A stretch of DNA of 32,000 nucleotides from Longivirga aurantiaca (GCF_042660085.1 NZ_JBHSTI010000008.1:630001-662000); one strand, 5' to 3'; counted from the first letter of the stretch, positions 4,826 to 18,437 are shown. Notes: generated by a model from the letters alone, not told the origin. A program made the numbers and translations.

Positions 4826-4868
4826 CGGTGCTCCGACACGCGGCCGTCCCTCTGCCAGACTGCGGGCC

Positions 4869-6254
4869 GTGAGCCCCGACCTGCGTCCCGGCCCGGCCTC
4901 GTTGTGGCGCGCGACCGTGGACGGGCCGCCACCGACGTACCCGCCCCTCCCGGGCGATCGCGACGCCGACGTCGTGATCGTCGGCGCCGGCTACACAGGC
5001 CTCTGGACGGCGTACTACCTGGCCGAGGCCGACCCGTCGCTCCGGATCGTCGTGCTCGACAAGGAGTACGTCGGGTTCGGGGCCTCCGGCCGCAACGGCG
5101 GCTGGTGCTCGGCGATCTACCCGGCGTCGATGCGACGGGTGTCTGCCCTCGCGGGTCGCGATGCCGCGATCCGCATGCAGCGGGCGATGAACGGCACCGT
5201 GCTCGAGGTGGGCGCGGTGGCCGAGGCCGAGGGGATCGAGTGCGGCTTCCGGGCCGGCGGCTACGCCTCGGTCGCGCGCAACGAGGCCCAGCTCGCGCGT
5301 TCGCAGGCCGAGGCGGCCGGCTGGGCGGCGTACGGGATGTCCGACCAGCTGACGCTGCTGGGCCAGGTGGAGGCGTCGAACCGCGTCAGGGCCACGGGCG
5401 TGCTCGGCGGCACCTACACCCCGCATTGCGCCGCGCTGCAGCCGTTCTCGCTCGTGGTCGGTCTCGGAACGGCGGTGGCCCGACGCGGCGTGACGATCCA
5501 CGAGGGCACCGAGGTCATCGGGATCGAGCAGGGGCGCGTCACGACGACGCGCGGCGTGGTGCGCGCCGACGTCGTGGTGCGCGCGACCGAGGGCTTCACG
5601 CCGACGCTGCCCGGCGTGCACCGGTCGGTGGTGCCGATGTACTCGCTGATGGTGGCGACCGAGCCCTTCTCGGACGACCTCTGGGGGCAGATCGGCCTCG
5701 CCGAGCGGGAGACCTTCAGCGACAAGCGGCACCTGAGGATCTACGGGCAGCGCACCGCCGACGGGCGCATCGCCTTCGGCGGGCGTGGGGCGCCGTACCA
5801 CTGGGGGTCGAGCGTGCGTCCCGAGCACGACGTCGACGACCGGGTGCACGCGATGCTGCGGCGCATCCTCGTCGAGCTGTTCCCCGCCCTCGGCGGCGTG
5901 CGGTTCACGCACGCCTGGGGCGGCAACCTCGGGATCCCGCGCGACTGGACGCCGTCGGTCACGTTCGACGCCGCGACCGGGCTCGCCCAGGCGGGCGGCT
6001 ACGTCGGCGACGGGGTCGCGACGGCGAACCTCGCGGGCCGGATGCTCCGCGACGCGATCCTGCGCACGTCCGGCAGCGAGCTGCTCGACCTTCCCCTCTA
6101 CGGCCACCGTTCCCGAGCCTGGGAGCCGGAACCCCTGCGCTGGACCGGCGTCAACGCGGTCACGGCGCTCTTCTCCGCGGCCGACCGCACCGAGGCCCGC
6201 ACGGGTCGGCCGTCGCGCGCGGCCGCCCGCTTCTGGCGCACGCTCGGCCACTGA
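4869..6254 (+). CDS. FAD-dependent oxidoreductase (DAO family)
   Basis: 461 aa with a GTG start. N-terminal dinucleotide-binding motif VVIVGAGYTGLWTAYYLA followed by GASGRNGGW, typical of the DAO/glycine-oxidase-like family. Confidence 0.85.
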   Translation: MSPDLRPGPASLWRATVDGPPPTYPPLPGDRDADVVIVGAGYTGLWTAYYLAEADPSLRIVVLDKEYVGFGASGRNGGWCSAIYPASMRRVSALAGRDAAIRMQRAMNGTVLEVGAVAEAEGIECGFRAGGYASVARNEAQLARSQAEAAGWAAYGMSDQLTLLGQVEASNRVRATGVLGGTYTPHCAALQPFSLVVGLGTAVARRGVTIHEGTEVIGIEQGRVTTTRGVVRADVVVRATEGFTPTLPGVHRSVVPMYSLMVATEPFSDDLWGQIGLAERETFSDKRHLRIYGQRTADGRIAFGGRGAPYHWGSSVRPEHDVDDRVHAMLRRILVELFPALGGVRFTHAWGGNLGIPRDWTPSVTFDAATGLAQAGGYVGDGVATANLAGRMLRDAILRTSGSELLDLPLYGHRSRAWEPEPLRWTGVNAVTALFSAADRTEARTGRPSRAAARFWRTLGH

Positions 6255-6322: not shown

Positions 6323-8296
6323 TCACGTGCCGGTGATGATGCGCGGTGCGGTCATGGTGTCCTGGCCGTGCATGTAGTTGGCCGGTACGTAGACGCGGTA
6401 CTCCCACGTGCCGGGCTGCACGACGATCTTGGCCGTGATCGCGCCGGTGGTCTGGGCGGTGCCCTGCCAGAGGTTGGAGTAGCTGCCGGTCGTCCCGACC
6501 TTGCGGGCGATGACCCACACGGTCCGCTGGTTGCCCGGCGTCACCGAGATGCCGTCGAGGTAGGTCCAGCCCGCCGCGACCGTCGACGTGGTGGTGTCGA
6601 AGCCCGAGACGGTGGTCTTCGCCGAGACGGTGCGGACGGCGGAGCCCACCGGGCCGTACGTCTTCCACGCCGGGGCGTACACGCGCCACTCCCAGATGCC
6701 GACCAGGACGCTGCCGGTGAACGGGATGCTGCAGCCGACGTTGGTGGTCTGGGTGGTCACGGTGTACCAGCTCGTCGCACCCTGCAGGCGGCGCTGCAGG
6801 ACCGCGGGGCGACCCGACTGGCTCCCGCAGGTGACGGCGACGGTCGAGCTGAACGTGCCGCCGCTCGCGGCGGTGAGGGAGGTGGAGGCCCAGCCGCTGA
6901 TGCTCGACGGCGCGTACGGCGTCACGGCGGCGGCGAAGGACGCGGGGCCGTCGCCGAGCGCGTTGAACGGGACGACCTTGACGGTGGCGCTGGCGCCGTT
7001 GGTGGCGGTGACAGCCGCGCTCGTCGTGGTGACGATCTTCTTCTGGACGCCGTTGACGTACACGCGGTACGACGTCGCCCCCTCGCCGGCGGGCGCCGCC
7101 ACCCAGGTGGCGTTCACGGTGGCGTTGCCGGCCTTCGCGGTGAGGCCCGAGACCGCACCCGGGACCGCCTTGGCGGCGGCGGAGATGCTCGTGGGCAGCG
7201 AGTCGCCCTCGCTGTTGACCGCGACGACGCTGAACTTCTGGACGACGCCGTTCGTGAGCCCGGTGGCGGTGAACGAGGCGGCGTTGGCGGGGAGGTTCAA
7301 GGCGAGGCCCTTGTCCGACGTGACGCGGTAGCCGAGCACCGGAGCCCCGTTGGTGGACGCCGGCGGCGCCCAGGTCAGGAGCACCTTGCCGTTGTACGGC
7401 GTCGCCGCGAGGCTGCGCACGGGCGTCGTGATGTTGCGGACGGTCTGCGACCAGGTGCCGCTGACGGAGTAGCCGACCGCGGTGCCGCCGGGCGTCGCGA
7501 TGGAGAACGCACCGCTCGAGACCCCGGTCTTCGTCGGGAGCGCGAGGGTGCCGGCCGCGGTCGACCAGTCGGCGGTGTCGTCGCTGCCGTTGGTGAAGGA
7601 CGGCACGCAGGTGGGGAGGCCCGACAGGCAGATGTAGCCGCCGCCGAACACGTCGTTGTCGTCGTCCCACATCACGAACCGCAGAGGCCGGTTCTGCTGC
7701 GCCCCGGCGATCGAGTGCGTGCGCGCGGTGCTGGGCACGGAGTAGGTGCCGCCGGTGCTCCAGGCCCAGTAGGTGCTCGTGGCGCCGAGCTGCCGGTAGG
7801 CGCCCAGCTCGGAGGTGCTGACCTTGGAGCCCATCCAGTAGAAGTCGCCCGCACCGGTGGAGTCGGAGTCGTTCGTGAGCGACACCTTGTCGAACGTGAC
7901 CGTGAGGTCGCGTCGCGGCGTGCGCAGCGTGCCCTCCTCGGTGCGGACGTTGCCGAACGAGTCGGCCGCCTTCACGACGTAGCGGTACCAGGCGCCCTGC
8001 GAGAGCCCGGTCTGCATGTCGTAGCTGCGGGTCGAGGTGAGGGCAGATCCGGCGGCCGGTGCGAACGACTTCACCTTGGTGGCGCCGAAGTAGATGTCGG
8101 CCGACACGAGGGTCGGGCTGCTGGTGGACACGTCGAGGCGCAGGCCGTCGGGGTACGGAGTCGCCGTGATGGCGCTGATGCAGTCGGTCTGGCACGGCGT
8201 CGCGGCGGACGCCGACGGCGCGACGGCGAGCGTGCTGCCGAGGATCGCGGCGGCGGTGACGCCGGCGGCTGCGGCGCGGCGTGCGGTGCGGTTCAT
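6323..8296 (-). CDS. Large secreted protein with fibronectin type III repeats
   Basis: Signal peptide MNRTARRAAAAGVTAAAILGSTLAVAPSASAA, with an RR that may indicate Tat export. Two Fn3-like modules (LLTWAPPASTNGAPVLGYRVTS...VVAVNSEGDS and VNATWVAAPAGEGATSYRVYVNG...VVPFNALGDG). AGGAGA RBS 7 nt upstream of the ATG. Confidence 0.8.
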   Translation of the reverse strand: MNRTARRAAAAGVTAAAILGSTLAVAPSASAATPCQTDCISAITATPYPDGLRLDVSTSSPTLVSADIYFGATKVKSFAPAAGSALTSTRSYDMQTGLSQGAWYRYVVKAADSFGNVRTEEGTLRTPRRDLTVTFDKVSLTNDSDSTGAGDFYWMGSKVSTSELGAYRQLGATSTYWAWSTGGTYSVPSTARTHSIAGAQQNRPLRFVMWDDDNDVFGGGYICLSGLPTCVPSFTNGSDDTADWSTAAGTLALPTKTGVSSGAFSIATPGGTAVGYSVSGTWSQTVRNITTPVRSLAATPYNGKVLLTWAPPASTNGAPVLGYRVTSDKGLALNLPANAASFTATGLTNGVVQKFSVVAVNSEGDSLPTSISAAAKAVPGAVSGLTAKAGNATVNATWVAAPAGEGATSYRVYVNGVQKKIVTTTSAAVTATNGASATVKVVPFNALGDGPASFAAAVTPYAPSSISGWASTSLTAASGGTFSSTVAVTCGSQSGRPAVLQRRLQGATSWYTVTTQTTNVGCSIPFTGSVLVGIWEWRVYAPAWKTYGPVGSAVRTVSAKTTVSGFDTTTSTVAAGWTYLDGISVTPGNQRTVWVIARKVGTTGSYSNLWQGTAQTTGAITAKIVVQPGTWEYRVYVPANYMHGQDTMTAPRIITGT

Positions 8297-8345: not shown

Positions 8346-8402
8346 GTGCCTGCGGTGGGTCCCGCACCTGAGCAGCGACTACTCACCTTCGCTCCGGCGC
8401 TA
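8346..8402 (+). repeat. Degenerate junction-repeat copy upstream of the first HNH gene
   Basis: It begins GCTCGTGCCTGCGG (compare GCTCGTGCCTCCCACG at 13033) and ends TCCGGCGCTA (compare ACCGGCACTA). The match is weak. Confidence 0.25.
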
Positions 8403-8501
8403 CCTAGGCAGCCGGGCTGGTGGTCGCTTCACGGGAGGCCTGCTCGCCGACGACCAGTTCTGGTGGTGGCCGGATTCGCCTGTGGTTGCTGTGGATTTCT
8501 C

Positions 8502-8542
8502 CTGTCGGTGGTCGGTGCATTGTCGGAGGTGGTTGGCATGAT
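8502..8542 (+). promoter_or_regulatory. RecA-NDp/PafBC-type DNA-damage promoter motif(s) in front of the HNH gene
   Basis: CTGTCGGTG at 8502-8510, GTCGGTG at 8511-8517, then TTGTCGGAG (8520-8528), an 8 nt spacer and CATGAT (8537-8542). The ATG at 8549 lies 7 nt after the -10 element, implying a leaderless mRNA. Confidence 0.45.
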
Positions 8543-8548
8543 GGGGTC

Positions 8549-10024
8549 ATGTCCCAGGCCACCTTCGTCGATCCGGCGGTGGAGTTCGCGCGCCTGGTCG
8601 CGGGTGCGCGGGGTCTGCTGGGCGAGGCGTCGGTGCTGGCCGGTTCCGGCGCTGTGTCTGAGGTGCAGCTGGCGGGTCTGCCGGAGCTGACGGCGGAGCT
8701 GTTCGCGGTCCGCGACGCCGCCCACGCCCTGGGCGTGGTCGCGGTGGACCGCCTGGACGCCTCGGGGGTGCTGGCGTCGGCGGGGTTCGGGTCGACGACG
8801 GCGTTCCTGACCCAGCGCACCGGCATGGCCCCGGGCAGGGCCGGCAGCGTCGTCTCGGGTGCGCGGACGCTGCGCTCGTATGCCGCGACGCGGGTCGCGC
8901 TGGTCGCGGGCCGGGTCACCCCGGACCTGGCGGCTGCCCTGGTGCGCGGCAGCGAGGCGGCGATCGCGGACAGGACCGCCGACGACCGGGTGCAGTGGCG
9001 GGCGTTCTGCGAGGACTACCTCCTCCCGATCGCGGAGCAGGGGTCGGTGGAGGAGGTCGCGGGCGCTGCCGCGGTGCTCAAGGAGATCCTGGACCCGGAG
9101 GCCGCGGCCCGGCGCAAGGAGGAGTCGATGGCGGGCCAGTTCCTCACCGTGACCCGGGTCGGGGACCAGTTCGTGATCAAGGGCGCCCTGACCCTGGAGG
9201 ACGGCGCCGCGCTCAAGGTGCTGCTGGACCGGATGCGCGACGCGAAGTTCCGCACGGGATCCCTGACCCCGGACGAGCAGCCCACCGGCGACGCCGCGGT
9301 CGACGAGCGGCGGCGCCGGATCGCCGCGGCGCACCAGGACGCCCTGTCGTTGAACCACCTCGTGCAGCTGTGGCTGGCCGGCGGCATGGTCGGCCGCGCC
9401 CACGGGGTCCGCCCGCACGTCACCATCGCGACCACGGTCGACGACCTCGACGCCGGGTTCCCCGGCGAGATGACCGTCCCCGGGATGTCGTCCCCGGTGC
9501 TGGTCAACGCCGAGACGGTGAAGCGGATGCTGTGCGACGCGTCGGTGACCGAGATCGGCGTCATCGGGTCCGTCCCCGACCGGCACGCGCACCACCACGG
9601 CGGCGTCCCCTGCCACGGCGCTGCCCACCGGGGGCGACACGGCCACGTCCACGGCGTCGGCGGCTGCGAGCTGCACCCCGGCTCGGCGCGGTTGCTGCGC
9701 CGCCGCCATCACGTCTGGGACGAGGGCCGCCGCTACCGCACCGTCCCACCCCGCCTGCGTCGGGCGCTGGACCTCCGCGACCAGCACTGCGCGTTCCCGG
9801 GCTGCCGGATCGCGGTCGGGTGGTGCGAGGCCCACCACATCCTCGAGTGGGAGTACGGCGGCGCCACCGACCTCGACAACCTCACGTTGTTGTGCGCGAA
9901 GCATCACCACGCGGTGCACGAGGGCGGCTGGACCATCGTGAAGAACCCCGGCATCGACCCGGGATGCCCGACCTGGCTCGCCTTCGACCCACCCGACCCC
10001 GTCCCCGTCCGAACCCGGCCCTGA
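8549..10024 (+). CDS. DUF222 + HNH endonuclease domain protein (REP13E12-type)
   Basis: Start chosen at ATG 8549 (MSQATFVDPAVEFARL) rather than the ORF-track start at 8420. C-terminal HNH region RRALDLRDQHCAFPGCRIAVGWCEAHHILEWEYGGATDLDNLTLLCAKHHHAVHEGGW. The long helical N-terminal region is typical of actinobacterial DUF222 proteins. Confidence 0.85.
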   Translation: MSQATFVDPAVEFARLVAGARGLLGEASVLAGSGAVSEVQLAGLPELTAELFAVRDAAHALGVVAVDRLDASGVLASAGFGSTTAFLTQRTGMAPGRAGSVVSGARTLRSYAATRVALVAGRVTPDLAAALVRGSEAAIADRTADDRVQWRAFCEDYLLPIAEQGSVEEVAGAAAVLKEILDPEAAARRKEESMAGQFLTVTRVGDQFVIKGALTLEDGAALKVLLDRMRDAKFRTGSLTPDEQPTGDAAVDERRRRIAAAHQDALSLNHLVQLWLAGGMVGRAHGVRPHVTIATTVDDLDAGFPGEMTVPGMSSPVLVNAETVKRMLCDASVTEIGVIGSVPDRHAHHHGGVPCHGAAHRGRHGHVHGVGGCELHPGSARLLRRRHHVWDEGRRYRTVPPRLRRALDLRDQHCAFPGCRIAVGWCEAHHILEWEYGGATDLDNLTLLCAKHHHAVHEGGWTIVKNPGIDPGCPTWLAFDPPDPVPVRTRP

Positions 10025-10150
10025 AGAAGGGCAGGCCGCACTCGGGACCGATCAGCACCGCAGGCAGACCGCACCACCCGACAGGGCGCGGTCCCCGTGG
10101 CATGTCCGGACACAGATCACACCGCGAGAAGTAACCGGCAATCGGCATCG
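10025..10150 (+). repeat. Junction repeat R0 (long form) directly after the HNH stop codon
   Basis: The left part GAAGAAGGGCAGGCCGCACTCGGG resembles GAAGTGCCCGGTGGTGCACTCGGG at 13772. The right end GAGAAGTAACCGGCAATCGGCATCG (10126-10150) matches GAGAAGGAACCGGCACTAGACATCG at 12341. Confidence 0.4.
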
Positions 10151-10154
10151 CGCT

Positions 10155-10466
10155 GTGGGGCAGGATCAGACCGTGCCGACTCGCGCTGATCGACCCGACG
10201 TACCCACCCTGTGCCTTGTCTGCGGGTTCGACTACGACGGGTTCGATGACGTTCTTCCGTGGGGTCCGGATGGCGACAGCCCGACCTACAACTTCTGCCC
10301 GTGCTGCGGCGTGGAGTTCGGTTACGGAGACTTCGCGATCGAGGGTGCGAAGCAGTGGCGAGCCAAGTGGCTGGCAGGCGGCGTCGAATGGTTCGACCCC
10401 AACGAGCGCCCCGTCGATTGGGACGTGTCGGTCCAACTCTCCCGCCTGCCCGAGCGCGTGAGATAG
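10155..10466 (+). CDS. Small cysteine-rich (zinc-ribbon-like) protein
   Basis: 103 aa with a GTG start (alternative in-frame GTG at 10173). Two Cys pairs, CLVCG...CPCCG, and no recognisable family. A junction-repeat left-end-like string lies at its 5' end. Confidence 0.55.
   Translation: MGQDQTVPTRADRPDVPTLCLVCGFDYDGFDDVLPWGPDGDSPTYNFCPCCGVEFGYGDFAIEGAKQWRAKWLAGGVEWFDPNERPVDWDVSVQLSRLPERVR
10173..10199 (+). repeat. Short junction-repeat-like copy overlapping the 5' end of the Zn-ribbon ORF
   Basis: GTGCCGACTCGCGCTGATCGACCCGAC. Compare GTGCCGATCGCGCTCG at 10474 and GTGCCGTTCGCGCTCGTATTTGATCGG at 16481. Confidence 0.3.
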
Positions 10467-10473
10467 CGCAGAC

Positions 10474-10521
10474 GTGCCGATCGCGCTCGCTTCGTCCTGA
10501 GAAGCTCGGCATTGGGCATCG
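10474..10521 (+). repeat. Junction repeat R1
   Basis: GTGCCGATCGCGCTCGCTTCGTCCTGAGAAGCTCGGCATTGGGCATCG. The ends GTGCCGA and TCGGCAT are inverted repeats. It starts 8 nt after the stop at 10466. Confidence 0.55.
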
Positions 10522-10563
10522 TCGACTTGCCCGAGGACGAGCACCCGGTGCGACGCTGGAGGG

Positions 10564-11004
10564 GTGACAACAGCGTCCCGGTGGGGCCTGACGCCTCGCC
10601 AGAGCGTCGAGCGGGAGGCCGCTCGGCGTGGGAGCGATGCGGTGATCGAGGGCTGTCGGGCCTTGGTCCGGGGCGAGGACGGGGATGCGGCGCTGGTTCT
10701 CGTTCTCGGTGGCCCTCCCGCCCGCACGTTCCTCGACGGTCAGCCCCACGTGGATGACTACTGGCTCAGGGTGTGGGGTCTGCGCGGGTTGCTGTGGGTG
10801 TGGTCGCCCGTCGCGATCCCCGAGCTTCGGGTCGCTCTGACTGATCCGGCGTGGAGAGTCCGGGAGATGGCCTTGAAGGTCGCCGCACGCAACCGGGTGG
10901 AGGACGTGGTCGAGGTGGCCGCGCCGCTGCAGAGCGATCCCGTGGCGAGGGTGAGACAGCAGTCGCACCGATACCTGATGCAGGTTGTTGCAGACGGCAC
11001 CTGA
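10564..11004 (+). CDS. HEAT-repeat-like protein
   Basis: 146 aa. LTDPAWRVREMALKVAARNRVEDVVEVAAPLQSDPVARVRQQSHRYL has the PBS-lyase/HEAT repeat pattern. The GTG at 10564 sits too close to GGAGG, so the in-frame GTG at 10642 is an alternative start. Confidence 0.55.
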   Translation: MTTASRWGLTPRQSVEREAARRGSDAVIEGCRALVRGEDGDAALVLVLGGPPARTFLDGQPHVDDYWLRVWGLRGLLWVWSPVAIPELRVALTDPAWRVREMALKVAARNRVEDVVEVAAPLQSDPVARVRQQSHRYLMQVVADGT

Positions 11005-11014
11005 CCGCACCGAA

Positions 11015-11055
11015 GCGGCCGTTCTGACTCCAGTTCTCGGTTCGGTACCGGCAGG
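11015..11055 (+). repeat. Junction repeat R2
   Basis: GCGGCCGTTCTGACTCCAGTTCTCGGTTCGGTACCGGCAGG. It shares GAAG + CCGTTCTGACTC with R3, R4 and R7. The right end is GTACCGGCA. It lies between the stop at 11004 and the ATG at 11065. Confidence 0.55.
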
Positions 11056-11064
11056 CTGTCCCGC

Positions 11065-11526
11065 ATGTTGATCGAGATCCGCGAAGCCACAGCCGAAGAT
11101 CTCCCTGCCCTCGCGCGGCTTCGCTGGGAGTGCCACACGGAGCGCCAACCGGCTGACGAGCATGACTTCGACGCCTACCGTCTCGGCTTTGCTCAATGGT
11201 GCTCGGCGCGGCAGGGCAGATGCCGCGCAGTCGTGGCCGTAGACGGTTCCCACGTCGTGGGCATGGGATTCCTTGTCCTGGTCGACCGCGTCCCCAGCCC
11301 CGGCTCGCTGGATCGCCATCATGGCGACATTCAGTCGATGTACGTAACACCCGCACACAGGAACCACGGGGTTGGATCGAAGATCGTTCGACGACTACTC
11401 GACCTGGCACGCGACGCAGGATGCGAGCGGATCGAGGTCTACTCAGGAAGCCGCGCGGTCACCTTCTACGAACGATCAGGGTTTGAGCACGTCGACCGAC
11501 TCCTGAATCGGGTCCTCGGGCAGTGA
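11065..11526 (+). CDS. GNAT family N-acetyltransferase
   Basis: 153 aa with an ATG start. Acetyl-CoA binding motif A region MYVTPAHRNHGVGSKIVRRLLDLARDAG, and C-terminal FYERSGF. Confidence 0.8.
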   Translation: MLIEIREATAEDLPALARLRWECHTERQPADEHDFDAYRLGFAQWCSARQGRCRAVVAVDGSHVVGMGFLVLVDRVPSPGSLDRHHGDIQSMYVTPAHRNHGVGSKIVRRLLDLARDAGCERIEVYSGSRAVTFYERSGFEHVDRLLNRVLGQ

Positions 11527-11543
11527 TGACGCTCCCGACCTCT

Positions 11544-11586
11544 GTGCCGTTCTGACTCGGATCTCGGAGCAAGGATCCGACACTAG
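11544..11586 (+). repeat. Junction repeat R3
   Basis: GTGCCGTTCTGACTCGGATCTCGGAGCAAGGATCCGACACTAG. The first 16 nt are identical to R7. There is an internal 6-bp stem CGGATC/GATCCG. Confidence 0.6.
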
Positions 11587-11702
11587 GTGGCGGTGGCGAG
11601 GCCAGGCTGTCGCGCCGCCGGACCACTCCGTTGGCCAGGCCACCGGGCGAGGTTGCGTCTAGCGTGGAGTTGCACGGGAACCTCCACCGAGGGGAGGCCG
11701 CC

Positions 11703-12212
11703 ATGACTGAGATTCCGGAGCCGTCCAGCACGAGGCGGTGGGGCCGTGGGGGCCTGGTCATCGCAGTGCTCGGTGCTCTGGCCCTCGTCGGATCCGCGCT
11801 CCTGGGCTTCCTCCTCATGCAGGGTCCACGTGATCTGTCGCCGGTGGCGTACGGGGAGCGGCTGACCGTCACCACGGAGCGGAGCTCCTCGGTCGCGGTG
11901 TACACGCCCACGGGCCTGGAGGCACCGCCCGCGTGTCAGGTGGCCACGTCAGCCGGTGCGGACGTCGAACTCGGCCCGGTCGAGCGCTACTCCCAGGCGA
12001 GCGGTCTGGAGACCACCTACTCGTTCGCCACCGCTGGGGGAGTTCCCTACCAAGTGTCCTGCGGGACGGTCGGTGAGACCGGCGAGTTCGCCGCCGCAGA
12101 GACCCGTCGCGTGTCAGTGCCACTGATCGTCGCCGTGGGCTCGATGGGGCTGGTGCTCCTCCTCGGAGGTCTCGTCCTCGCGCGTCTCAGCGGCCGCTCG
12201 ATAGTCGGCTAG
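11703..12212 (+). CDS. Two-TM membrane-anchored protein of unknown function
   Basis: ATG at 11703 follows a GAGGGGAGG RBS (the ORF track starts earlier, at 11631). Hydrophobic helices GLVIAVLGALALVGSALLGFLLM and PLIVAVGSMGLVLLLGGLVLA flank a ~100 aa domain containing 2 Cys. Confidence 0.6.
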   Translation: MTEIPEPSSTRRWGRGGLVIAVLGALALVGSALLGFLLMQGPRDLSPVAYGERLTVTTERSSSVAVYTPTGLEAPPACQVATSAGADVELGPVERYSQASGLETTYSFATAGGVPYQVSCGTVGETGEFAAAETRRVSVPLIVAVGSMGLVLLLGGLVLARLSGRSIVG

Positions 12213-12220
12213 GGCTTCCA

Positions 12221-12259
12221 GCCGAAGATCCCTCGAGCGACCGGATGGCGAACCGAGCC
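12221..12259 (+). repeat. Degenerate junction-repeat copy (R3b) abutting R4
   Basis: GCCGAAGATCCCTCGAGCGACCGGATGGCGAACCGAGCC. The right part resembles CTCGAAGAGCGAACCGGAGCC of R7. Confidence 0.25.
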
Positions 12260-12262
12260 GAA

Positions 12263-12358
12263 GTGCCGTTCTGACAGTGCGGGCTCGATTCCCGTCACCC
12301 GCTCCGCTGTGATTCGTTGTGACACAACGGCAGACAGGCGGAGAAGGAACCGGCACTA
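12263..12358 (+). repeat. Junction repeat R4 (long form)
   Basis: The left end GTGCCGTTCTGAC and the right end GGAACCGGCACTA can pair as 9 bp with one bulged G. It contains the 53-bp core shared with R5 and the palindrome GTTGTGACACAAC (12316-12328). Confidence 0.65.
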
Positions 12359-12462
12359 GACATCGCGTCCCACCGGGGGCGGGGCCCCGTTCCAACCCCG
12401 GCGCGACACGCGCTCTTCCGAGCGGCGGTGGCGTGCGCCGCCGTCCGCGCACCGGCGACGGG

Positions 12463-12999
12463 TCAGCAGAGGTCGACGAGGGCGAGCAGCGTGCGCCAGT
12501 TGCGCGCGGTGCCCGTGGTGGCCAGTCGCTTGAGGATGGCGCCGTGCTGCAGCCGGCTGTCGTGCATCGTCTCGCCGTACGCGATGACGATCTCGAGCTC
12601 GCGCGCGGCGACGAGGTCGGCGCCCCAGTCGGTGCTCAGCAGCGTGGCGAGCGCCGTCGCGTCGGGGGCGGTGTCGAGGTGCAGCACGTGCACCGACGCC
12701 GGCCGCTCGGCCGCCTGCTCGGCGAAGGGCGACCACTCCGCCACCGCGCGCAGCTGCCTCGGCGTGCGCACCAGCACCGGGGTGTCGATGCCGAACGACG
12801 CGCGCAGCACGTCGCCGACGCCGCTCGCCACCTTCCCCGGCGTCCGGACGGGCGAGGAGAGGATGACGTTGCCGCTCTGCATGTACGTGCGGACGTCGGC
12901 GTAGCCCGCCTCGGCCAGCGCGGTCCGCAGCGCCGGCATGCTCACCTTGTTATGGCTGCCGAGGTTGACCGCACGCAGCAGGGCCACCCAGGTCGGCAT
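12463..12999 (-). CDS. DUF1697 family protein
   Basis: 178 aa. The N-terminus MPTWVALLRAVNLGSHNKVSMPALRTALAEAGYADVRTYMQSGNV matches the characteristic DUF1697 start as I recall it. Confidence 0.75.
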   Translation of the reverse strand: MPTWVALLRAVNLGSHNKVSMPALRTALAEAGYADVRTYMQSGNVILSSPVRTPGKVASGVGDVLRASFGIDTPVLVRTPRQLRAVAEWSPFAEQAAERPASVHVLHLDTAPDATALATLLSTDWGADLVAARELEIVIAYGETMHDSRLQHGAILKRLATTGTARNWRTLLALVDLC

Positions 13000-13036
13000 G
13001 CCCTGACCCTAGCCTCGGAGGCGACCACCGGCGCTC

Positions 13037-13103
13037 GTGCCTCCCACGATGCTGTGATTCGTTGTGACACAACGGCAGACAGGCGAAGAGAGAACCGGCA
13101 CTA
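13037..13103 (+). repeat. Junction repeat R5
   Basis: GTGCCTCCCACGAT followed by the 53-bp core (13051-13103), which matches 12306-12358 at 50 of 53 positions. It includes GTTGTGACACAAC (13061-13073) and the right end GAACCGGCACTA. Confidence 0.65.
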
Positions 13104-13115
13104 TCGCTCGTGTGG

Positions 13116-13691
13116 TCAGGTGCTGGAACGGCCCACACCGATGCACCAGATCAGCAGCAGCATCGACCCGATGTACGCCAGGACCTGAGGCGCGACGAGG
13201 CCGGCGCCCGCCGAACCCCAGTCGTCGATGCCGGAGAGGATGCCCGGCAGCACCGCGAGGCCCACCACGAGCAGTACGCCGGCGATGACGCCAAGCCAGC
13301 GCAGCCACACCGGCCAGCTCGTGCTGCCGAGAATCGTCAGCGCGAGAATGAGGAACCACACGCCGAGGACGCCCCACCCCAGGGCGGACCACAGTCCGGC
13401 GAGATACCAGTCGGTGCGTCCGGTCAGGACGAGGACCGAGCCGATGACGATCAGAATCGCGCCCAGGACAGCGGCGGTAAGTGCGAGCCAGCGCGGCACG
13501 ATGCCGTCGGGCAGCAGGTCGCGCGCCGCGAAGGCCAGCAGCATCGCCAGGACGCCGGTGGCCGCTCCGAGCACGTCGTTGACCGGTCCGAGGAAGCCGA
13601 GACCCACGGACATCAAGACGAGGGCGGCGAGAGCGACTATGCCAACGAGGGCGGTCCACAGCGCCAGCGACCTCACCGAGTCCGTGACCAT
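13116..13691 (-). CDS. Polytopic membrane protein of unknown function
   Basis: Start chosen at the ATG at 13689-13691 (MVTDSVRSLALWTALVGIVALAALVLM). About 6 hydrophobic segments. The upstream part of ORF 13116..13934 is Arg/Ser-rich and not protein-like. Confidence 0.6.
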   Translation of the reverse strand: MVTDSVRSLALWTALVGIVALAALVLMSVGLGFLGPVNDVLGAATGVLAMLLAFAARDLLPDGIVPRWLALTAAVLGAILIVIGSVLVLTGRTDWYLAGLWSALGWGVLGVWFLILALTILGSTSWPVWLRWLGVIAGVLLVVGLAVLPGILSGIDDWGSAGAGLVAPQVLAYIGSMLLLIWCIGVGRSST

Positions 13692-13768
13692 GCGCACCTC
13701 GTACCAAACGATGCTCGCTCTCCGCGATGATCCCGCGCACAACATGGCAGGGCAATGGTCGGCGGAGC

Positions 13769-13871
13769 GCAGAAGTGCCCGGTGGTGCACTCGGGTCTGG
13801 GCGTTGGGGCTGGTTCGGTCGTAGCGTCCTGATGTCGCCGGGCTGACTCGCGAAGTGCCTGCCGTTGCTGG
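13769..13871 (+). repeat. Junction-repeat left-end copies (R6) with no matching right end before the IS110 fragment
   Basis: GCAGAAGTGCCCGGTGGTGCACTCGGG (13769-13797) shares GCAGAAGTGCC with 15853-15863. A second left-end copy is CGAAGTGCCTGCCGTTGCTGG (13851-13871). Confidence 0.35.
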
Positions 13872-13912
13872 CCTGCTAACGAACTGTCGCTCGGCGGCGT
13901 CGACCGCGGCAT

Positions 13913-14939
13913 GACTCAACAGAGGCTTGGCCACCCCGCACCGGGACTGTCTGCCGCGTTCCTTTCCCTCGAGTGGTTGTAGCGGGCAGATGCAGGTGAT
14001 CGGAGTCGATCCTCACAAGGGATCCCACACGGCAGTGGCGATCGGTGGCGACGAGAGCGTGATCGCCTCAGTGCGTATCGCGGCGAGCCGGCGCCAGGTC
14101 GAACGACTGCTGGTGTTCGCGGCCGCGTGGCCGGAACGGGTCTGGGCGGTCGAGGGCGCGCAGGGCGTGGGCCGGATGCTCGCCCAGCAACTGGTGGCTC
14201 GGGGCGAGCGAGTGGTGGATGTGCCGCCCTCGCTCTCGACCCGGGTCAGGGTGCTGTCGGGCCGGTCTGGTCGCAAGACCGACGCGCACGACGCCCGCGC
14301 TGTCGCGGTCGCTGCCCTACGCCAACCCAACCACACGATCGTGGCTGCTGAGGACTTCAGCAGGAGCCTGCGGTTGTTGTCCGACCGCCGCGCGCAGCTG
14401 ACCGCCGCCCGCACCCAGGCCGTCACGCGACTGCACGGACTGCTCGCCGAACTCGTGGAAGGCGGTGCACCCCAGTCGCTCTCAGCCGAGCAGGCAGCGG
14501 CGATCCTGCGCCGGATCCGACCCGTGAGCGAGGTCGACGTGATCCGCAAGGAGCTCGCACGCGACCTGCTCGGAGACCTGCGGCGCCTGGACGCCAAGCT
14601 CGCCGCTAACGCGACCAGGATCGCCGAGGCCGTTCATGACAGTGGCACTACCCTGACCGAGATCCAGGGCATCGGGCCGATCACCGCAGCCCGGATCATC
14701 GGTCACAGCGGCAACCCGGCCCGCTTCCCGACCCGCGGGCACTACGCCTCCTACGCCGGCACCGCACCCATCGAGGCATCCTCAGGAACGGTCGAACGCC
14801 ACCGCCTGTCCCGGCGCGGGAACCGGCAGCTGAACTCGGCACTGCACGGCGTCGCGATCACCCAGATGCGCCACCCCGGCCCGGGTAAGGACTACTACGA
14901 ACGCAAGATCGTCGCGTCGCTTGACACACAGAGGCTTCG
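13913..14939 (+). mobile_element. IS110-family insertion sequence remnant (boundaries uncertain)
   Basis: Bracketed by the imperfect 17-18 bp direct repeat GACTCAACAGAGGCTTGG (13913-13930) and GACACACAGAGGCTTCG (14923-14939). It contains the truncated transposase ORF. Confidence 0.45.
13990..14913 (+). pseudogene. IS110-family DEDD transposase, 3'-truncated (~308 codons, no stop codon of its own)
   Basis: MQVIGVDPHKGSHTAVAIG, VWAVEGAQG, KTDAHDARAVA and LTEIQGIGPITAARIIG...IEASSG...RRGNRQLNSALH are IS110 N- and C-terminal domain signatures. Similarity stops after DYYERKI, about 40-60 codons short. The frame then runs on into the next gene. Confidence 0.75.
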
Positions 14940-15066
14940 TTTGCGCACGTTGCGGCCTGGCGGCTGCCGGCGAGCCTTGCCGCCTAGAGCCGGGTGCACG
15001 AATGCTCTGCCGACCCGCTCCAGACTGCGGGCGACACTGCGCTGGCGCCGCCGTATCGTGGCCGCG

Positions 15067-15732
15067 GTGTGCTTCTCGCCCCAGGCGGATCTGGTCGGCG
15101 GCGCTGTTCTCGTCGTGCTCGGCGTCGATGCGCTGCGCCACGTGCACGAGCGGCGTGACCACGTCGCGCTCGCGGCGCTGCCGCTACTCCTCGCCGCGCA
15201 CCAGGTGATAGAGGCATTCGCGTGGTGGGGCCTGCAGGGAGTGGTGACCCCTGAGGTCGGGACGGCAGCTGTGTGGGCCTACCTGTTCATCGCGTTCGTC
15301 GTGCTACCCGTCTACGTGCCCGTCTCGATCCTCACGATGGAGCCGCCAGGCTGGCGACGCCAGGTCATCTGGGCATTCGTCGCCATGGGCGCCGTCGTCG
15401 CGGCCGGCCTGCTCGCCGGCATGCTGCGCGGTCCGGTGACGGCCGCAGTCGAGGGCTGGCACCTCGCTTACGGCACGGGCACGACCGCCGGGGGTGCGCT
15501 CGCAGTCGTCTACGTCGTCGTCACTTGCGGATCGGTGCTGTTCTCGGGGCGGCCCTACCTCATGGCGTTCGGGCTGCTGAACCTGCTGGCCGTCGCGTTC
15601 CTTGCCTGGTTTGAACTCTCCGGCTTCGCGTCGCTGTGGTGCGCGTGGGCGGCGCTCACCGCGGGCGGCATCGCCGTATACATGCGGATCGATCATCGCC
15701 CCCGCGTCCGGACGTCATACGCCGTGCCGTAG
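15067..15732 (+). CDS. Polytopic membrane protein (DUF6629-like)
   Basis: GTG at 15067 gives MCFSPQADLVGGAVLVVLGVDALRHV, followed by about 6 hydrophobic helices. It is in frame with the upstream IS110 remnant, so the ORF track merges them as 13927..15732. Confidence 0.6.
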   Translation: MCFSPQADLVGGAVLVVLGVDALRHVHERRDHVALAALPLLLAAHQVIEAFAWWGLQGVVTPEVGTAAVWAYLFIAFVVLPVYVPVSILTMEPPGWRRQVIWAFVAMGAVVAAGLLAGMLRGPVTAAVEGWHLAYGTGTTAGGALAVVYVVVTCGSVLFSGRPYLMAFGLLNLLAVAFLAWFELSGFASLWCAWAALTAGGIAVYMRIDHRPRVRTSYAVP

Positions 15733-15836
15733 CCGCCCGCGCCGGTCCGCGACGTTACCGACTGGCGACCCCGCACGCCGCGCGCTCTGGTCCAGTCCGT
15801 TGGCGACCGGCTGCGCAGCGGAGGTGATTGAGGGGG

Positions 15837-15855
15837 GCGTGCCTCGGGGGCACGC
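15837..15855 (+). repeat. Perfect 7-bp hairpin GCGTGCC-TCGGG-GGCACGC immediately before R7
   Basis: A minimal GTGCC...GGCAC inverted repeat about 105 nt after the stop at 15732. It may be a terminator. Confidence 0.4.
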
Positions 15856-15859
15856 AGAA

Positions 15860-15903
15860 GTGCCGTTCTGACTCGCTTCTCGAAGAGCGAACCGGAGCCA
15901 TCG
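15860..15903 (+). repeat. Junction repeat R7
   Basis: GTGCCGTTCTGACTCGCTTCTCGAAGAGCGAACCGGAGCCATCG. The preceding GAAG gives the exact 16-mer GAAGTGCCGTTCTGAC, also present at 12260. Inner stem TCGCT/AGCGA; outer stem CCG-TTC/GAA-C-CGG with a bulge. Confidence 0.6.
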
Positions 15904-16070
15904 CTTGCCCGTAACCGGTCAACGCCGTCTGTCTCACGATGTGAAGCCACGAGCGACTTGGACAAGGGCGGCGCCAGCTGACCGGATGCGCCTTAGCCTC
16001 ACCTTCGAGGTCCTCTGCCTCGAGCGAGTCAATCCTCGCCGACCCACCACATGATCAGCATGGAGGAGCC

Positions 16071-16436
16071 ATGGCCCAGAAGGCCGTCGTAAGTCTCACC
16101 ACGGGACTCGAAGACATCGAGAAGGTGACAGTGGCGTTTCTCGTCGCGGTCGGCGCTGCCGAGACGGGGCGCGACACCCTCGTGTTCCTCACGCAGGAGG
16201 CCGTGCGCCTTGCCCTTCCTGGGGTGGCGACCGGCATCGGCTGCGACGGCTGCCCTTCCCTTGAGTCGCTCGTGGAGCGCTACCACGCTGCTGGCGGTCG
16301 CTACTTCGTCTGTCCGATCTGCGTCGACTCGCGCAAGATCGACGCCGCGACACTGATCGACGGCGCGGAGCTCAACGGGACCATCCCCATGTGGAACTGG
16401 ATCGGCGACGACGGGGCCACGACTTTCAGCTACTGA
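16071..16436 (+). CDS. DsrE-family (DsrE/DsrF-like) small protein
   Basis: 121 aa. ATG follows a GGAGG RBS. MAQKAVVSLTTGLEDIEKVTVAFLVAVGAAETGRDTLVFLTQEAV and the later CPICV fit the DsrE-like fold pattern as I recall it. Confidence 0.55.
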   Translation: MAQKAVVSLTTGLEDIEKVTVAFLVAVGAAETGRDTLVFLTQEAVRLALPGVATGIGCDGCPSLESLVERYHAAGGRYFVCPICVDSRKIDAATLIDGAELNGTIPMWNWIGDDGATTFSY

Positions 16437-16480
16437 CTGCTCCGCGGTGCCGAGAGCGTGCCGCATAGCGGCGCGGAGAT

Positions 16481-16514
16481 GTGCCGTTCGCGCTCGTATT
16501 TGATCGGGCAGGGC
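16481..16514 (+). repeat. Junction repeat R8 (short form)
   Basis: GTGCCGTTCGCGCTCGTATTTGATCGGGCAGGGC. The left end matches R1 (GTGCCG-A/T-TCGCGCTCG). The right end GATCGGGCAGG resembles GTACCGGCAGG of R2. Confidence 0.45.
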
Positions 16515-16577
16515 TGGCCCGCGCCGAGCCGCCGCACGATGCCTTGATCGGCTAGGTCGGCCGGCCCCGTGTTCTGT

Positions 16578-18263
16578 CTAGAACGGGGGCTGGTCGATCT
16601 CGACGGCGAGGGCGTGCACGGTGTGCGGGCGGGGGAGGTTGGGGCGTGCGGGGATGCGGACCGTCTGTCCGAGGGCGGTGTTGAAGGTGGCGGTGCCGTC
16701 GGGTCTGGAGTCGGTGATGTCCAGGAGGCCGGCGGTCTTGCGTTGGTGGCATTCGGTGCAGAGGGCGCCGCAGTTGCCGGCGGTGGTGGGGCCGTGGGGT
16801 GCTTCTTCGGCGTGGTCGATCTGCAGGTAGCGCTGGGCTTTGCGGGTGCAGCCGGGTGATCGGCAGCCGCCGTCGCGGGCGATGCAGTGCCGGCGCAGGG
16901 CGGGTGGGACGCGGACGGTGGTGCCGTGGTCCTTGACCCAGCCGTCGACGGGGTCGGTGACCACGCGGCGCAGGAACGTGGCCCAGGCGGCGTGGTCGCG
17001 GGCGATGCCGGCGGGGGCGGGTTGGCCGTTGATGAGGGCGACCCGGTCCTGCAGCCCCTGCAGGGTGTCGGCATCGATGACGACGTCGGTGGTGATGATC
17101 GTGGCGGCGGCGCGGTCGAACGTCACCTCCCCGTCGGGGGTGACGGTGCCGAGGATGCGGGCCATGAGGGCGTCGGCGCGGGCGGCGTCGGCGCGCAGGT
17201 CGGCGTCGGACCACACCGGCTCTGTGGCGCGGTCGCTCTCGGCTGCTGCGGCGGCGGCGGCGGTGTCGTTGTCGCGGTGGCGCTGGTCGGCGATGGCGTC
17301 GCCGTCGCGGCGCAGGGTGTCGTAGATGGCGTCGATGACGGGGGTGTCGTGGGTGAGGCCGAGGAAGGACATGCCGTCCTTGCCGCGGCGGATGTAGAGG
17401 CCGCGGTCGTCGTGGGCCTTCTGGTGGCGGCGGACGGCGTCGGGGTCGAGCTCGGTGATCAGGGCCTGCAGGTGGGTGCGGAAGTCCGCGACGACCATCG
17501 TGCGGGCTGCGGGCAGGGCCAGGCGGCCGATCACCTCGAGGGTGTCGGGGTCGGTGATGTTCAGGCACTCGCTGATCAACGTCCGGCAATGCCAGTCGGA
17601 CACCTCACCCTCGAGGAGGGCGTGGCCGAAGGGCGCGAGCTCCCCGAACAGGGACCGCGCCGTGGAGATGTGGTGGGCGGCGGCGTCGATGGACATCCCG
17701 ACGGCGATCGCGACCTCGTGGGCGATCTGCCGGTCGTTCTCCGACGACACCGCCCCTCGCGGGTCGGGGATCCCGGCGATGGCGGCGAGGGCTGCGTAGC
17801 GGCGGCCGTGGGCGCGGTCGACGTCGCGATCGAGGCGGGTGAGGTCCTCGAGCAGGTCGGGGGCGGCGACGGGGGAGTTCAGGTCCTGAGCGTCGACCAG
17901 GCCCAGGGCCAGGGCCCACATGCGGGAGGAGTCGGTGCCGGGCACGAACCGGGCCTCCACTTGCTCGCGCAGCGCGGCGGCGCGCGCGGCTCGCCGCTGG
18001 GCGAGCCGCACTGCGCGCTCGTCCGGCTCACGCACCGGGGCAGGCTCAGGCTCGCCGACAGTCCGGGCCGGGCGGCGGTGGCCGGGCACGTCCACGTCCA
18101 GCTGCAGCGACCCGAGCACCGGCGACCACGCGGCGGGCCGCGCGTAGTCGGCCTCCAGGCCCTCGACGACGAACCGCTCCAGGCCCTGCACCAGCCCGGC
18201 CAGCAGCGCGTCCACCGCGGACACGACGGTCTCCGAGGTGCTCGAGCCGCGGCTGCTGGACAT
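16578..18263 (-). CDS. DUF222 + HNH endonuclease domain protein (REP13E12-type), second copy
   Basis: 561 aa with an ATG start. C-terminal VPPALRRHCIARDGGCRSPGCTRKAQRYLQIDHAEEAPHGPTTAGNCGALCTECHQRKTAG is an HNH/Zn-finger region. Long helical N-terminal region. Only distantly similar to the 8549..10024 protein. Confidence 0.85.
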   Translation of the reverse strand: MSSSRGSSTSETVVSAVDALLAGLVQGLERFVVEGLEADYARPAAWSPVLGSLQLDVDVPGHRRPARTVGEPEPAPVREPDERAVRLAQRRAARAAALREQVEARFVPGTDSSRMWALALGLVDAQDLNSPVAAPDLLEDLTRLDRDVDRAHGRRYAALAAIAGIPDPRGAVSSENDRQIAHEVAIAVGMSIDAAAHHISTARSLFGELAPFGHALLEGEVSDWHCRTLISECLNITDPDTLEVIGRLALPAARTMVVADFRTHLQALITELDPDAVRRHQKAHDDRGLYIRRGKDGMSFLGLTHDTPVIDAIYDTLRRDGDAIADQRHRDNDTAAAAAAAESDRATEPVWSDADLRADAARADALMARILGTVTPDGEVTFDRAAATIITTDVVIDADTLQGLQDRVALINGQPAPAGIARDHAAWATFLRRVVTDPVDGWVKDHGTTVRVPPALRRHCIARDGGCRSPGCTRKAQRYLQIDHAEEAPHGPTTAGNCGALCTECHQRKTAGLLDITDSRPDGTATFNTALGQTVRIPARPNLPRPHTVHALAVEIDQPPF

Positions 18264-18270
18264 GGATCAC

Positions 18271-18293
18271 AGAATAGAACACACATACGACAG
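18271..18293 (-). promoter_or_regulatory. RecA-NDp/PafBC-type DNA-damage promoter in front of the second HNH gene
   Basis: The minus strand reads CTGTCGTAT-GTGTGTTC-TATTCT-GTGATCC-ATG, which is TGTCG, an 8 nt spacer and a perfect TAnnnT. The start codon lies 7 nt after the -10 element, implying a leaderless mRNA. Confidence 0.5.
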
Positions 18294-18437
18294 TGACTCA
18301 TACCCTGGAGCGAGGAATCGCCGGAAAGTGTTCAGCCGCAAGCGAACACAGCCGGATCCGAGCGAGGCTCGGAAGCACATGACGTGTGATTGGGGAGCTG
18401 CCGGGTGGACGAGCACGAGCGAGCCGCGGACGACGGA

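Follow-up and report, generated by a model that had tools for sequence, protein, structure and literature searches.

DUF222-HNH nuclease genes of Longivirga aurantiaca bracket a cassette array and share its junction half-sites

The window analysed here is a 32,000-nt stretch of the genome of Longivirga aurantiaca (NZ_JBHSTI010000008.1:630001-662000), and all coordinates are positions within it. It contains two DUF222-HNH genes, as revealed by a Pfam search: HNH1 (8549-10024, plus strand, 491 aa) and HNH2 (16578-18263, minus strand, 561 aa). For the DUF222 domain (PF02720), the scores are 51.3 bits (HNH1) and 45.1 bits (HNH2), above the cut-off of 24.4, and the HNH domain (PF01844) exceeds the curated Pfam cut-off in both. 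A first-pass annotation of this DNA had described the two genes as convergent across a cassette array and only distantly related, and this description holds: both genes are intact, and only 67 aa of their products can be aligned, in the HNH region, with 38% identity. A composite transposon, already excluded in that annotation, is rejected, as the two genes have no nucleotide-level similarity and so represent no paired insertion sequence. GC3 is 0.93-0.94 in both HNH genes and 0.80-0.84 in the array ORFs between them, save for the DUF1697 gene (0.98). The genome encodes 14 DUF222 paralogues (13 Pfam matches and one divergent copy), and with 14 genes in 3.67 Mb about 0.04 pairs within 10 kb would be expected by chance.

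An alignment of 63 HNH sequences shows no variation at C414, C419, H429, H430, C449, H452, H453 and H457 and almost none at N444. HNH1 was modelled with AlphaFold2 (pLDDT 86); the fold of the HNH domain matches that of McrA-type nucleases, and a search of the PDB for a structural relative of the helical DUF222 part returned no match. An RNA-guided HNH nuclease of the IscB/Cas9 type was considered and rejected: Pfam detects no RuvC domain, and only the HNH domain is IscB-like (E ~1e-3). Nor is a structured guide RNA apparent, since the tail that follows HNH1 shows neither excess folding energy (z = 0.58) nor covariation.

HNH1 is a multi-copy mobile unit. It lies in a 1.7-kb repeat (8447-10151, plus strand), the limits of which were set by a blastn comparison of the locus with the other paralogue loci (locus positions 3258-4962, corresponding to 8447-10151 of the window). 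The repeat is one of seven nucleotide copies in the genome, which are ~91% identical and have sharp ends; the encoded paralogues share 90-95% identity. Directly 5' of the unit, a comparison of the seven aligned 5' flanks revealed an imperfect hairpin (8417-8457, plus strand), which, according to a genome-wide list, is a diverged form of the REP-like hairpin found before five other HNH1 copies. Past the stop codon, the unit continues as a non-coding 3' tail of 127 nt (10025-10151, plus strand), which recurs in four of the other six copies, with one more truncated by a contig end, and is conserved across species in an alignment of nine tails from three species.

HNH2 is a single-copy gene, ~40% identical to three other paralogues, and has an orthologue in genome G033 (63% identical) beside the same kgd-PolA-p198 genes. 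Its product ends with Pro-Pro-Phe-stop; among 39 HNH2-type relatives in the genus, 33 end with PPF and three more with a PP[Y/V] variant. The codons of this terminus overlap or resemble the core of the L half-site of the junction repeats described below. Six of the 39 genes have a same-strand R box, the other half-site, between +34 and +52, compared with none in three control windows. The palindrome GTGTTCGCTTGCGGCTGAAC (18330-18349, minus strand) is located 5' of HNH2 and is conserved ahead of each of the genome's four HNH2-type genes.

The array is opened by the R half-site GAGAAGTAACCGGCA (10126-10140, plus strand), which closes the HNH1 unit. L boxes were scored with a matrix trained only on genomes other than this one, and all the array features listed here are on the plus strand. 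An L box follows cassette A (10474-10489, score 32.5), a degenerate one with two mismatches to the 13-mer follows the HEAT-repeat cassette (11016-11028), and a further one follows the GNAT cassette (11544-11559). The next junction (12263-12355) consists of an L box, a long spacer and an R box (12341-12355), and includes the first of two copies of a 53-nt direct repeat; the second copy (13051-13103) is 94% identical to it, and the two flank an inverted DUF1697 gene. A truncated IS110-family transposase gene (13990-14910) is fused in frame to a DUF6629 gene, as detected with Pfam, and the L box after the DUF6629 cassette (15860-15875, score 38.6) is the best in the genome. The last L box, after the DsrE cassette (16481-16496), is separated by 82 nt from the HNH2 stop codon; seen from the strand of HNH2, it forms the R-type half of a junction that both convergent units have in common. 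This geometry recurs at paralogues D01 and D02: with protein identities of only ~40% among them, these two genes and HNH2 each have an L box 78-105 nt past the stop codon.

At 33 array sites from eleven loci, a stop codon is located 0-10 nt before the L box, and the R box is an inverted L box with one extra base. Compared by eye with the consensus of the attC core (RYYYAAC / GTTRRRY), the conserved boxes, GTGCCGTTCTGACTCG and GAACCGGCA, showed no fit. The palindrome of the junction is imperfect and has a bulged base, and precise hybrid joints, in which the right half of an L box comes after an R box, were also seen. These two features point to a putative site-specific recombinase acting on the folded site. 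Such joints are not predicted by a repair-based homing mechanism.

The L and R half-sites at the ends of the HNH genes bear out the earlier proposal that these genes belong to the same repeat framework as the cassettes, and several details of that proposal can be made precise. The junction repeat supposed to start right after the HNH1 stop codon does not do so: the segment is the 3' tail of the unit, and only its last ~15 nt, the R box, are a junction half-site. The degenerate repeat copies reported upstream of both genes are family-specific palindromes, namely the hairpin and the palindrome given above, and do not score as L boxes. The left-end-like motif noticed over the HNH2 stop codon is real and corresponds to the family-wide coding sequence for the C-terminus. 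Nor are junction repeats missing near other paralogues, which would have spoken against the proposal: at least eight of the 14 have L or R boxes within ~350 nt of a gene end. The seven genome-wide matches of the R pattern comprise four HNH1-family tails, one site in the array and two sites beside other DUF222-HNH genes; four of the seven HNH1 copies have the R box at the end of the unit.

The junction repeats are non-randomly associated with HNH genes. In this genome, five of the six L-box loci lie within 1.6 kb of a DUF222-HNH gene, and these neighbourhoods make up 1.8% of the genome; across six genomes, such a gene is found no further than 6 kb away from 13 of the 74 L loci, compared with 3.8 expected. 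Rows of cassettes continue outward from the HNH gene's 3' end, and at three loci the arrays start where the HNH1 tail stops. The orthologous site of paralogue D09 differs among four species: it is empty in G025 (42 nt between the aligned flanks), is occupied by the HNH gene only in G033 and by the HNH gene with one cassette in G000, and contains the HNH gene with three co-oriented L boxes in G022. The arrangement of an HNH gene followed by cassettes recurs beside the DAO gene in G033, and a second, non-syntenic array in G031, between mnmA and an AMP-binding gene, likewise has a DUF222-HNH gene on either side. The link holds only in part: there are arrays with no HNH gene nearby (L016, L012 and G000:C8:1289-1291 kb) and most HNH genes have no array. 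Thus, L016 has eight L boxes and no HNH gene within 7.5 kb on one side and 4 kb on the other, and a strong L box follows only five of the 39 HNH2-type genes of the genus at a distance of up to 2.4 kb. The association is also uneven, with no L locus out of 14 near an HNH gene in G029 and two out of 11 in G031. The only other enzyme gene recurring near arrays is that of the IS110 family.

In M. tuberculosis, the REP13E12 genes of this family are DNA-damage-induced. Motifs resembling the RecA-NDp promoter (PMC2897130, PMC6789036) were found upstream of 12 of the 14 paralogues, compared with 0.36 expected. The motif of HNH1 (8521-8542, plus strand) consists of TGTCGG, 10 nt and CATGAT, and the ATG follows 6 nt later, so that the transcript would be leaderless. 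That of HNH2 (18271-18292, minus strand) consists of TGTCGT, 10 nt and TATTCT, with the ATG after 7 nt. Judging by these motifs, HNH1 and HNH2 are probably induced by DNA damage.

The genes resemble the '13E12 repeat family' (REP13E12) of Mycobacterium tuberculosis in the pairing of DUF222 with HNH, the actinobacterial host, the multiple near-identical nucleotide copies, the RecA-NDp-type promoter motif and the lack of a known function. REP13E12 loci have been described as recombination-prone gene-conversion hotspots of undefined function (PMC13061034). Unlike them, the genes studied here carry defined junction half-sites common to neighbouring single-gene cassettes, and cassette rows run from their 3' ends; neither feature was found for REP13E12-type genes in the literature searched. 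In phiRv1 integration, which depends on a large serine integrase, a DUF222-HNH repeat likewise serves as the docking place for foreign DNA. However, large serine recombinases are missing from the present genome, single genes rather than a prophage are inserted, and the insertion site is at the 3' end of the gene or beyond it instead of within the gene.

With integrons and CALINs, the arrays share mostly co-oriented rows of single genes without an evident promoter and an imperfect-palindromic site directly 3' of each gene, with conserved outer boxes and a variable centre. They also share an entry site adjoining an enzyme gene, and the existence of arrays without that gene. In contrast to integrons, the neighbouring enzyme gene encodes a nuclease and is co-oriented with the cassettes, not divergent from them, and the boxes are unlike the attC core; no Phage_integrase domain, indicative of an IntI-type tyrosine recombinase, was found in the scanned ORFs of the window. 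A 2016 integron census reportedly included no complete integrons from this host phylum. The free-standing HNH homing genes of phages (the nicking I-HmuI; mobE and seg of T4) are similar in being selfish and in their presence/absence polymorphism at a fixed intergenic site, as seen here at the D09 site. In both cases neighbouring DNA moves or turns over along with the gene, and a nick or break is the expected trigger. The present genes differ in their large helical DUF222 region without a solved structural relative and in being chromosomal, present in many copies and flanked by defined palindromic junctions, and their cleavage specificity is putative.

With moderate confidence, we favour the explanation that the HNH genes are selfish, cassette-like units which anchor the arrays, the nuclease being likely to open the junction. 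The first-pass annotation had raised the idea that the nuclease genes are selfish cassettes themselves, and this fits best with the seven near-identical HNH1 units, their sharp ends and the empty site in a related species. HNH units and cassettes obey a shared grammar, in which a gene is followed by an L-type half-site at or after its stop codon, a spacer, and an R-type half-site standing before the next unit. Co-oriented cassettes would accumulate from the R half-site that ends the HNH1 tail, and an HNH2-type gene would close the array from the opposite side in inverted orientation, which it could do because its last codons contain an L half-site and because the junction is a near-palindrome. 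DNA damage would induce the nuclease, which would then most likely nick or cut the junction, and host repair or a further recombinase would complete the insertion or exchange of a cassette. No HNH nuclease is known to perform strand exchange. The chemistry, the anatomy of the junction, the arrays without an HNH gene, the many HNH genes without an array, the uneven association and the cross-genome counts given below all speak against this explanation.

It is possible, if less probable, that the HNH genes play a passive part, as cargo or landing pads in an integron-like system with a recombinase that is encoded outside the window and acts in trans. One candidate is a tyrosine (Xer-like) recombinase that works on the folded junction; another enzyme is also conceivable, and the nuclease itself might serve, for example, selfish homing or DNA-damage repair. 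The junction is attC-like in having two inverted half-sites, one extra base, a variable hairpin-capable spacer and a stop codon directly before it. The precise hybrid sites, the arrays that lack an HNH gene and the 53-nt duplication round the inverted DUF1697 gene, an expected trace of insertion by site-specific recombination, agree with such a system, and the use of REP13E12 as the phiRv1 attachment site provides a precedent (PMC9317374). However, the arrays have no recurrent recombinase gene in their vicinity: the tyrosine recombinases beside L016 and L010 share only 27% identity, none of the seven tyrosine recombinase matches of the genome lies in the window, and large serine recombinases are absent from this assembly (96% complete). 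Passive HNH genes would also leave unexplained why three loci have arrays that start specifically where the HNH1 tail ends.

An incidental co-location, in which HNH genes, cassettes and IS110 elements pile up in permissive variable regions with no functional link and share motifs through common descent of neighbouring DNA, seems improbable. In its favour, both HNH genes are situated exactly at synteny breakpoints, the homology with G033 breaking off where HNH2 has its stop codon and where the HNH1 unit ends. The numbers of HNH genes and of L boxes also both grow with genome size, the removal of which abolishes most of their correlation (partial rho 0.38), and the association is not significant in several genomes. 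Mere accumulation does not account for a placement precise to less than 110 nt at D01, D02 and HNH2, for an R box exactly at the end of the HNH1 unit, for the concentration of L loci in 1.8% of the genome, or for an ordered series at one site from empty to an HNH gene with three L boxes. Least probable of all is recognition of the junction repeat by IS110-family (DEDD) recombinases with the HNH genes as unrelated neighbours: IS110/IS1111 elements do target palindromic repeats and integron attC sites, and relatives occur in five array loci (the window, L002, L007 with two copies, L008 and L012), but IS110 elements move themselves and not unrelated cassettes, the window copy is truncated, and the D09, DAO and G031 arrays have HNH genes and no IS110.

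The explanation of the HNH genes as selfish anchoring units could be extended, rather doubtfully, to the proposal that Actinomycetota possess a non-integron system of gene capture with DUF222-HNH nucleases as its enzyme. The selfish nuclease gene would be induced by DNA damage and would open the near-palindromic junction at the end of its own 3' tail, where single-gene cassettes would be captured. More remotely, the strongly conserved 95-nt tail might, as RNA or DNA, serve as a cofactor in choosing the target. The present findings link the large uncharacterised DUF222-HNH family to integron-like gene capture and make this link testable. If the proposal of a capture enzyme is true, the 'REP13E12' family would be a functional counterpart of the integron integrase.

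The two genes that bracket the small-cassette array, HNH1 (8549-10024, + strand) and HNH2 (16578-18263, - strand), both encode proteins with Pfam DUF222 and HNH domains scoring above the curated cut-offs. Alignment of the two proteins is confined to 67 residues in the HNH region, with 38% identity, and a search for a nucleotide repeat joining the two genes found none, which rules out a composite transposon. The window (C8:630001-662000) is part of a high-GC actinobacterial chromosome, where the third-position GC of HNH1 and HNH2 is host-like (0.93-0.94) and that of the small ORFs between them is 0.80-0.84, with the exception of an inverted DUF1697 gene (0.98). The array region is flanked by core genes, on the left encoding an ABC-hydrolase fusion, a DAO oxidoreductase and an fn3 protein, and on the right a 198-aa protein (p198), a PolA-like protein and kgd. 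The Pfam domains, the short alignment, the lack of a nucleotide repeat and the surrounding genes thus confirm the description in the first-pass annotation of two distantly related DUF222-HNH genes. The fn3-domain gene (6323-8296), located between DAO and HNH1, is missing at the syntenic place in the related genomes G033 and G022, where an HNH1-type gene directly follows DAO.

No integrase gene, tRNA gene or Rfam match was found within the window, and duplication of a tRNA or tmRNA attachment site was rejected for want of the latter two. Docking of a serine integrase, as with phiRv1, was rejected because the genome under study (G000) has no large serine recombinase. A tyrosine recombinase shared by the arrays was also rejected, as the two found near arrays show no relationship with one another. 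For HNH1, AlphaFold2 gave a confident model (pLDDT 86). Relatives of HNH1 were recognised only through the HNH domain: McrA-type in the fold comparison, and IscB-type and group II intron maturase-type in the sequence comparison; no solved structure in the PDB matched the helical DUF222 part. A search for related loci with HNH2 alone returned nothing, and only distant relatives were found with an alignment as the query.

Each cassette ORF has its stop codon 0-10 nt upstream of a conserved L box, GTGCCG[T/A]TC-NNN-CTCG, which is followed by a variable spacer, often able to form a hairpin, and then frequently by the R box, GAACCGGCA, an inverted L box with one extra base. Within G000, the exact 13-mer of the L box occurs at this locus only, and in 63 genomes of the family it has 23 matches, often clustered, versus 4 for the reversed control. 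This indicates that the junction repeat is a genus-wide signal of arrays and not a general REP element; the REP-like hairpin found beside HNH1 units belongs to a different family. Immediately after many R boxes comes the right half of an L box, and such hybrid sites point to a fixed crossover position. A 53-nt direct repeat (12306-12358 and 13051-13103, 94% identical) flanks the single inverted DUF1697 gene with its host-like GC3, which looks like a recent insertion at a junction.

G000 contains 13 Pfam DUF222 matches and one divergent HNH2-like copy (C2:137736-139067). HNH1 is one of seven paralogues with 90-95% protein identity and about 91% DNA identity, and it is a mobile multi-copy unit. 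The DNA common to the copies (8447-10151 for HNH1) ends 127 nt past the stop codon and, in four of the seven copies, terminates in GAGAAG-N-AACCGGCA, the R half of the junction repeat. The stretch after the HNH1 stop codon, earlier taken for the first junction repeat, is therefore the 3' tail of the HNH1 unit itself. About 95 nt of the tail are conserved in two other species, and a block of about 35 nt (10065-10100, GAGACCGCACCACCC ... GCGGTCCC) is near-invariant over the three species (matching tails at loci L145, L151 and L152), whereas the units as a whole are 77-82% identical. A structured RNA in the tail was not supported, as neither excess folding energy nor covariation was found.

A family of REP-like hairpins with the arms TTGGTAGTGG / CCACTACCAA is present in roughly 25-30 copies in G000, mostly directly 3' of stop codons (for example, C8:30186-30239, C8:55490-55550 and C2:203759-203863). 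Such a hairpin lies 5' of five other HNH1 copies; that of HNH1 itself (8417-8457) is a diverged version, in which the changes retain pairing at nine of the ten stem positions. It also occurs 3' of two HNH1 units as part of an R-hairpin-L module of about 105 nt. A decayed HNH1-type copy (C8:82887-84135) is 64-72% identical, and its end module is 91% identical to that of the paralogue D09, so that the module has been kept or renewed during gene decay. Another R-hairpin-L module stands alone (C2:203467-203863), with a truncated tyrosine recombinase fragment about 120 nt away.

With an L-box matrix trained on sites from other genomes only, the ten best matches in G000 fell in the array (four), in the flanks of the DUF222-HNH paralogues D01, D08, D09 and D14, and in one small locus at C8:1289-1291 kb. 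For five of these six loci, a DUF222-HNH gene is no more than 1.6 kb away, and the regions this close to one make up 1.8% of the genome (binomial probability about 1e-8). Junction repeats and HNH genes are thus associated far above chance. The sixth locus (C8:1289100-1290823) is a small array of two strong L boxes 1.7 kb apart; it has no adjoining nuclease gene, none of the DUF222-HNH genes being closer than 9.6 kb. By the first-pass annotation, a lack of nearby junction repeats at other paralogues would have refuted its reading; L boxes in fact flank D01, D02, D08, D09 and D14. In three HNH2-type genes (D01, D02 and HNH2, some pairs of which are only about 40% identical), a reverse-strand L box lies 78-105 nt past the stop codon; this geometry recurs in only one of 39 other HNH2-type genes and was rejected as a family-wide feature. 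Between about codon 80 and 110 nt beyond the stop codon, the DNA of D01 (C8:~1861200-1862763) and D02 (C8:1278273-~1279850) is 93% identical; the two have unrelated N-termini and promoters, and such a mosaic would be consistent with gene conversion.

An array of at least five L boxes in G031 occupies a different chromosomal place, with mnmA on one side and an AMP-binding gene on the other, and it too has a DUF222-HNH gene at either end. At the site orthologous to that of D09, four species form a series: in G025 the site is empty, the aligned flanks of two conserved genes being 42 nt apart; G033 has only an HNH1-type gene; G000 has this gene, an R-hairpin-L module and one cassette; and in G022 the gene is followed by three co-oriented L boxes (scores 16-34) with ORFs of 72-104 codons. 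At the DAO site of G033, two L boxes likewise follow an HNH1-type copy. Cassette rows run co-oriented from the end of the HNH1 tail, and the place of docking is at or past the 3' end of the gene rather than within it.

The HNH2-type genes are linked to the repeat through their own 3' ends. The protein ends in PPF-stop in 33 of 39 HNH2-type genes of the genus and in a PP[Y/V] variant in three more. The end codons CC-N-CC-N-TTC-TGA reproduce the L core, where GTG-CCG-TTC-TGA reads Val-Pro-Phe-stop, and in one gene (L136) the ORF passes straight into a full L box. An R box is present at +34 to +52 in six of the 39 genes and in none of three control windows. HNH genes and cassettes are units that share one repeat grammar, as the first-pass annotation had proposed. 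About 100 nt 5' of each HNH2-type gene lies a conserved palindrome, GTGTTCGC-N-TG-N-GC-NN-AAC (window 18330-18349; C8:1861097, 1279949 and 2002187; L018:10853), which may serve as an operator or mark the unit's 5' boundary.

The HNH2 orthologue of G033 (63% identical) adjoins the same kgd-PolA-p198 genes, and the HNH1-type copy beside ABC-DAO lies on a different contig. The homology between G000 and G033 ends exactly at the HNH2 stop codon and at the end of the HNH1 unit. This indicates that both genes mark edges of variable DNA and that a rearrangement brought them together in G000.

It seems an even chance that the HNH gene serves both as the anchor of a cassette row and as the source of a nuclease that would open the junction. 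This reading is favoured because no recombinase recurs near the arrays and because the arrays begin at the end of the HNH tail. The same two observations weigh against the main rival, in which a site-specific recombinase moves both cassettes and HNH units and the HNH gene is cargo or a landing pad; the attC-like anatomy of the junction and the precise hybrid joints speak for it, and it is possible but distinctly less probable.

Mere coincidence of HNH genes and arrays is improbable given the association in G000, though the link has its limits. Among the 74 L loci that a regex defined in six genomes, 13 have an HNH gene no more than 6 kb away (3.8 expected); the figure is none of 14 in G029 and two of 11 in G031. 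No HNH gene is within reach of the eight L boxes that make up the array of locus L016, nor is one near L012 and part of L002, although contig ends restrict the view. Among 39 HNH2-type genes, only five are followed within 2.4 kb by a strong L box. The correlation of HNH and L-box counts across genomes (rho 0.71) drops to 0.38 with genome size removed and was set aside as confounded.

Least probable is the action of an IS110 enzyme on the junction, even though this family inserts into palindromic repeats and relatives are present in five array loci (the window, L002, L007, L008 and L012); the IS110 genes in the last four are related to the window copy and 43-95% identical. At 13990-15732 the window copy, a truncated transposase gene, forms an in-frame fusion with a gene for a DUF6629 membrane protein.

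Few uncharacterised multi-copy genes in Actinomycetota are as abundant as those of the DUF222-HNH (REP13E12) family, of which HNH1 and HNH2 are ordinary members. The family is also present in M. tuberculosis, where its genes form recombination hotspots of no assigned function and where 13E12 genes are induced by DNA damage. The motif TGTC[AG][GT]-N10-NAnnnT stands at promoter distance in 12 of the 14 paralogues (0.36 expected), and the start codons (ATG) of HNH1 and HNH2 are 6-7 nt past the -10 element. It matches the PafBC-dependent RecA-NDp promoter (PMC6789036, PMC2897130). REP13E12 loci are among the strongest gene-conversion hotspots of M. tuberculosis and have no defined function (2026 preprint, PMC13061034), and this would be consistent with a nuclease that acts where it is encoded. 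Literature searches found no paper tying DUF222-HNH genes to cassette arrays or to an integron-like cassette system. Complete integrons are not known from Actinomycetota.

The DUF222-HNH family gains a concrete, testable DNA substrate: half-sites shared with cassettes, rows running from the 3' end of the gene and an empty site in a related species. Even if the nuclease turns out to be no more than a landing pad, a cassette system not found described in the literature searches is still defined by the junction repeat. The results point to a gene-capture mechanism in Actinomycetota.
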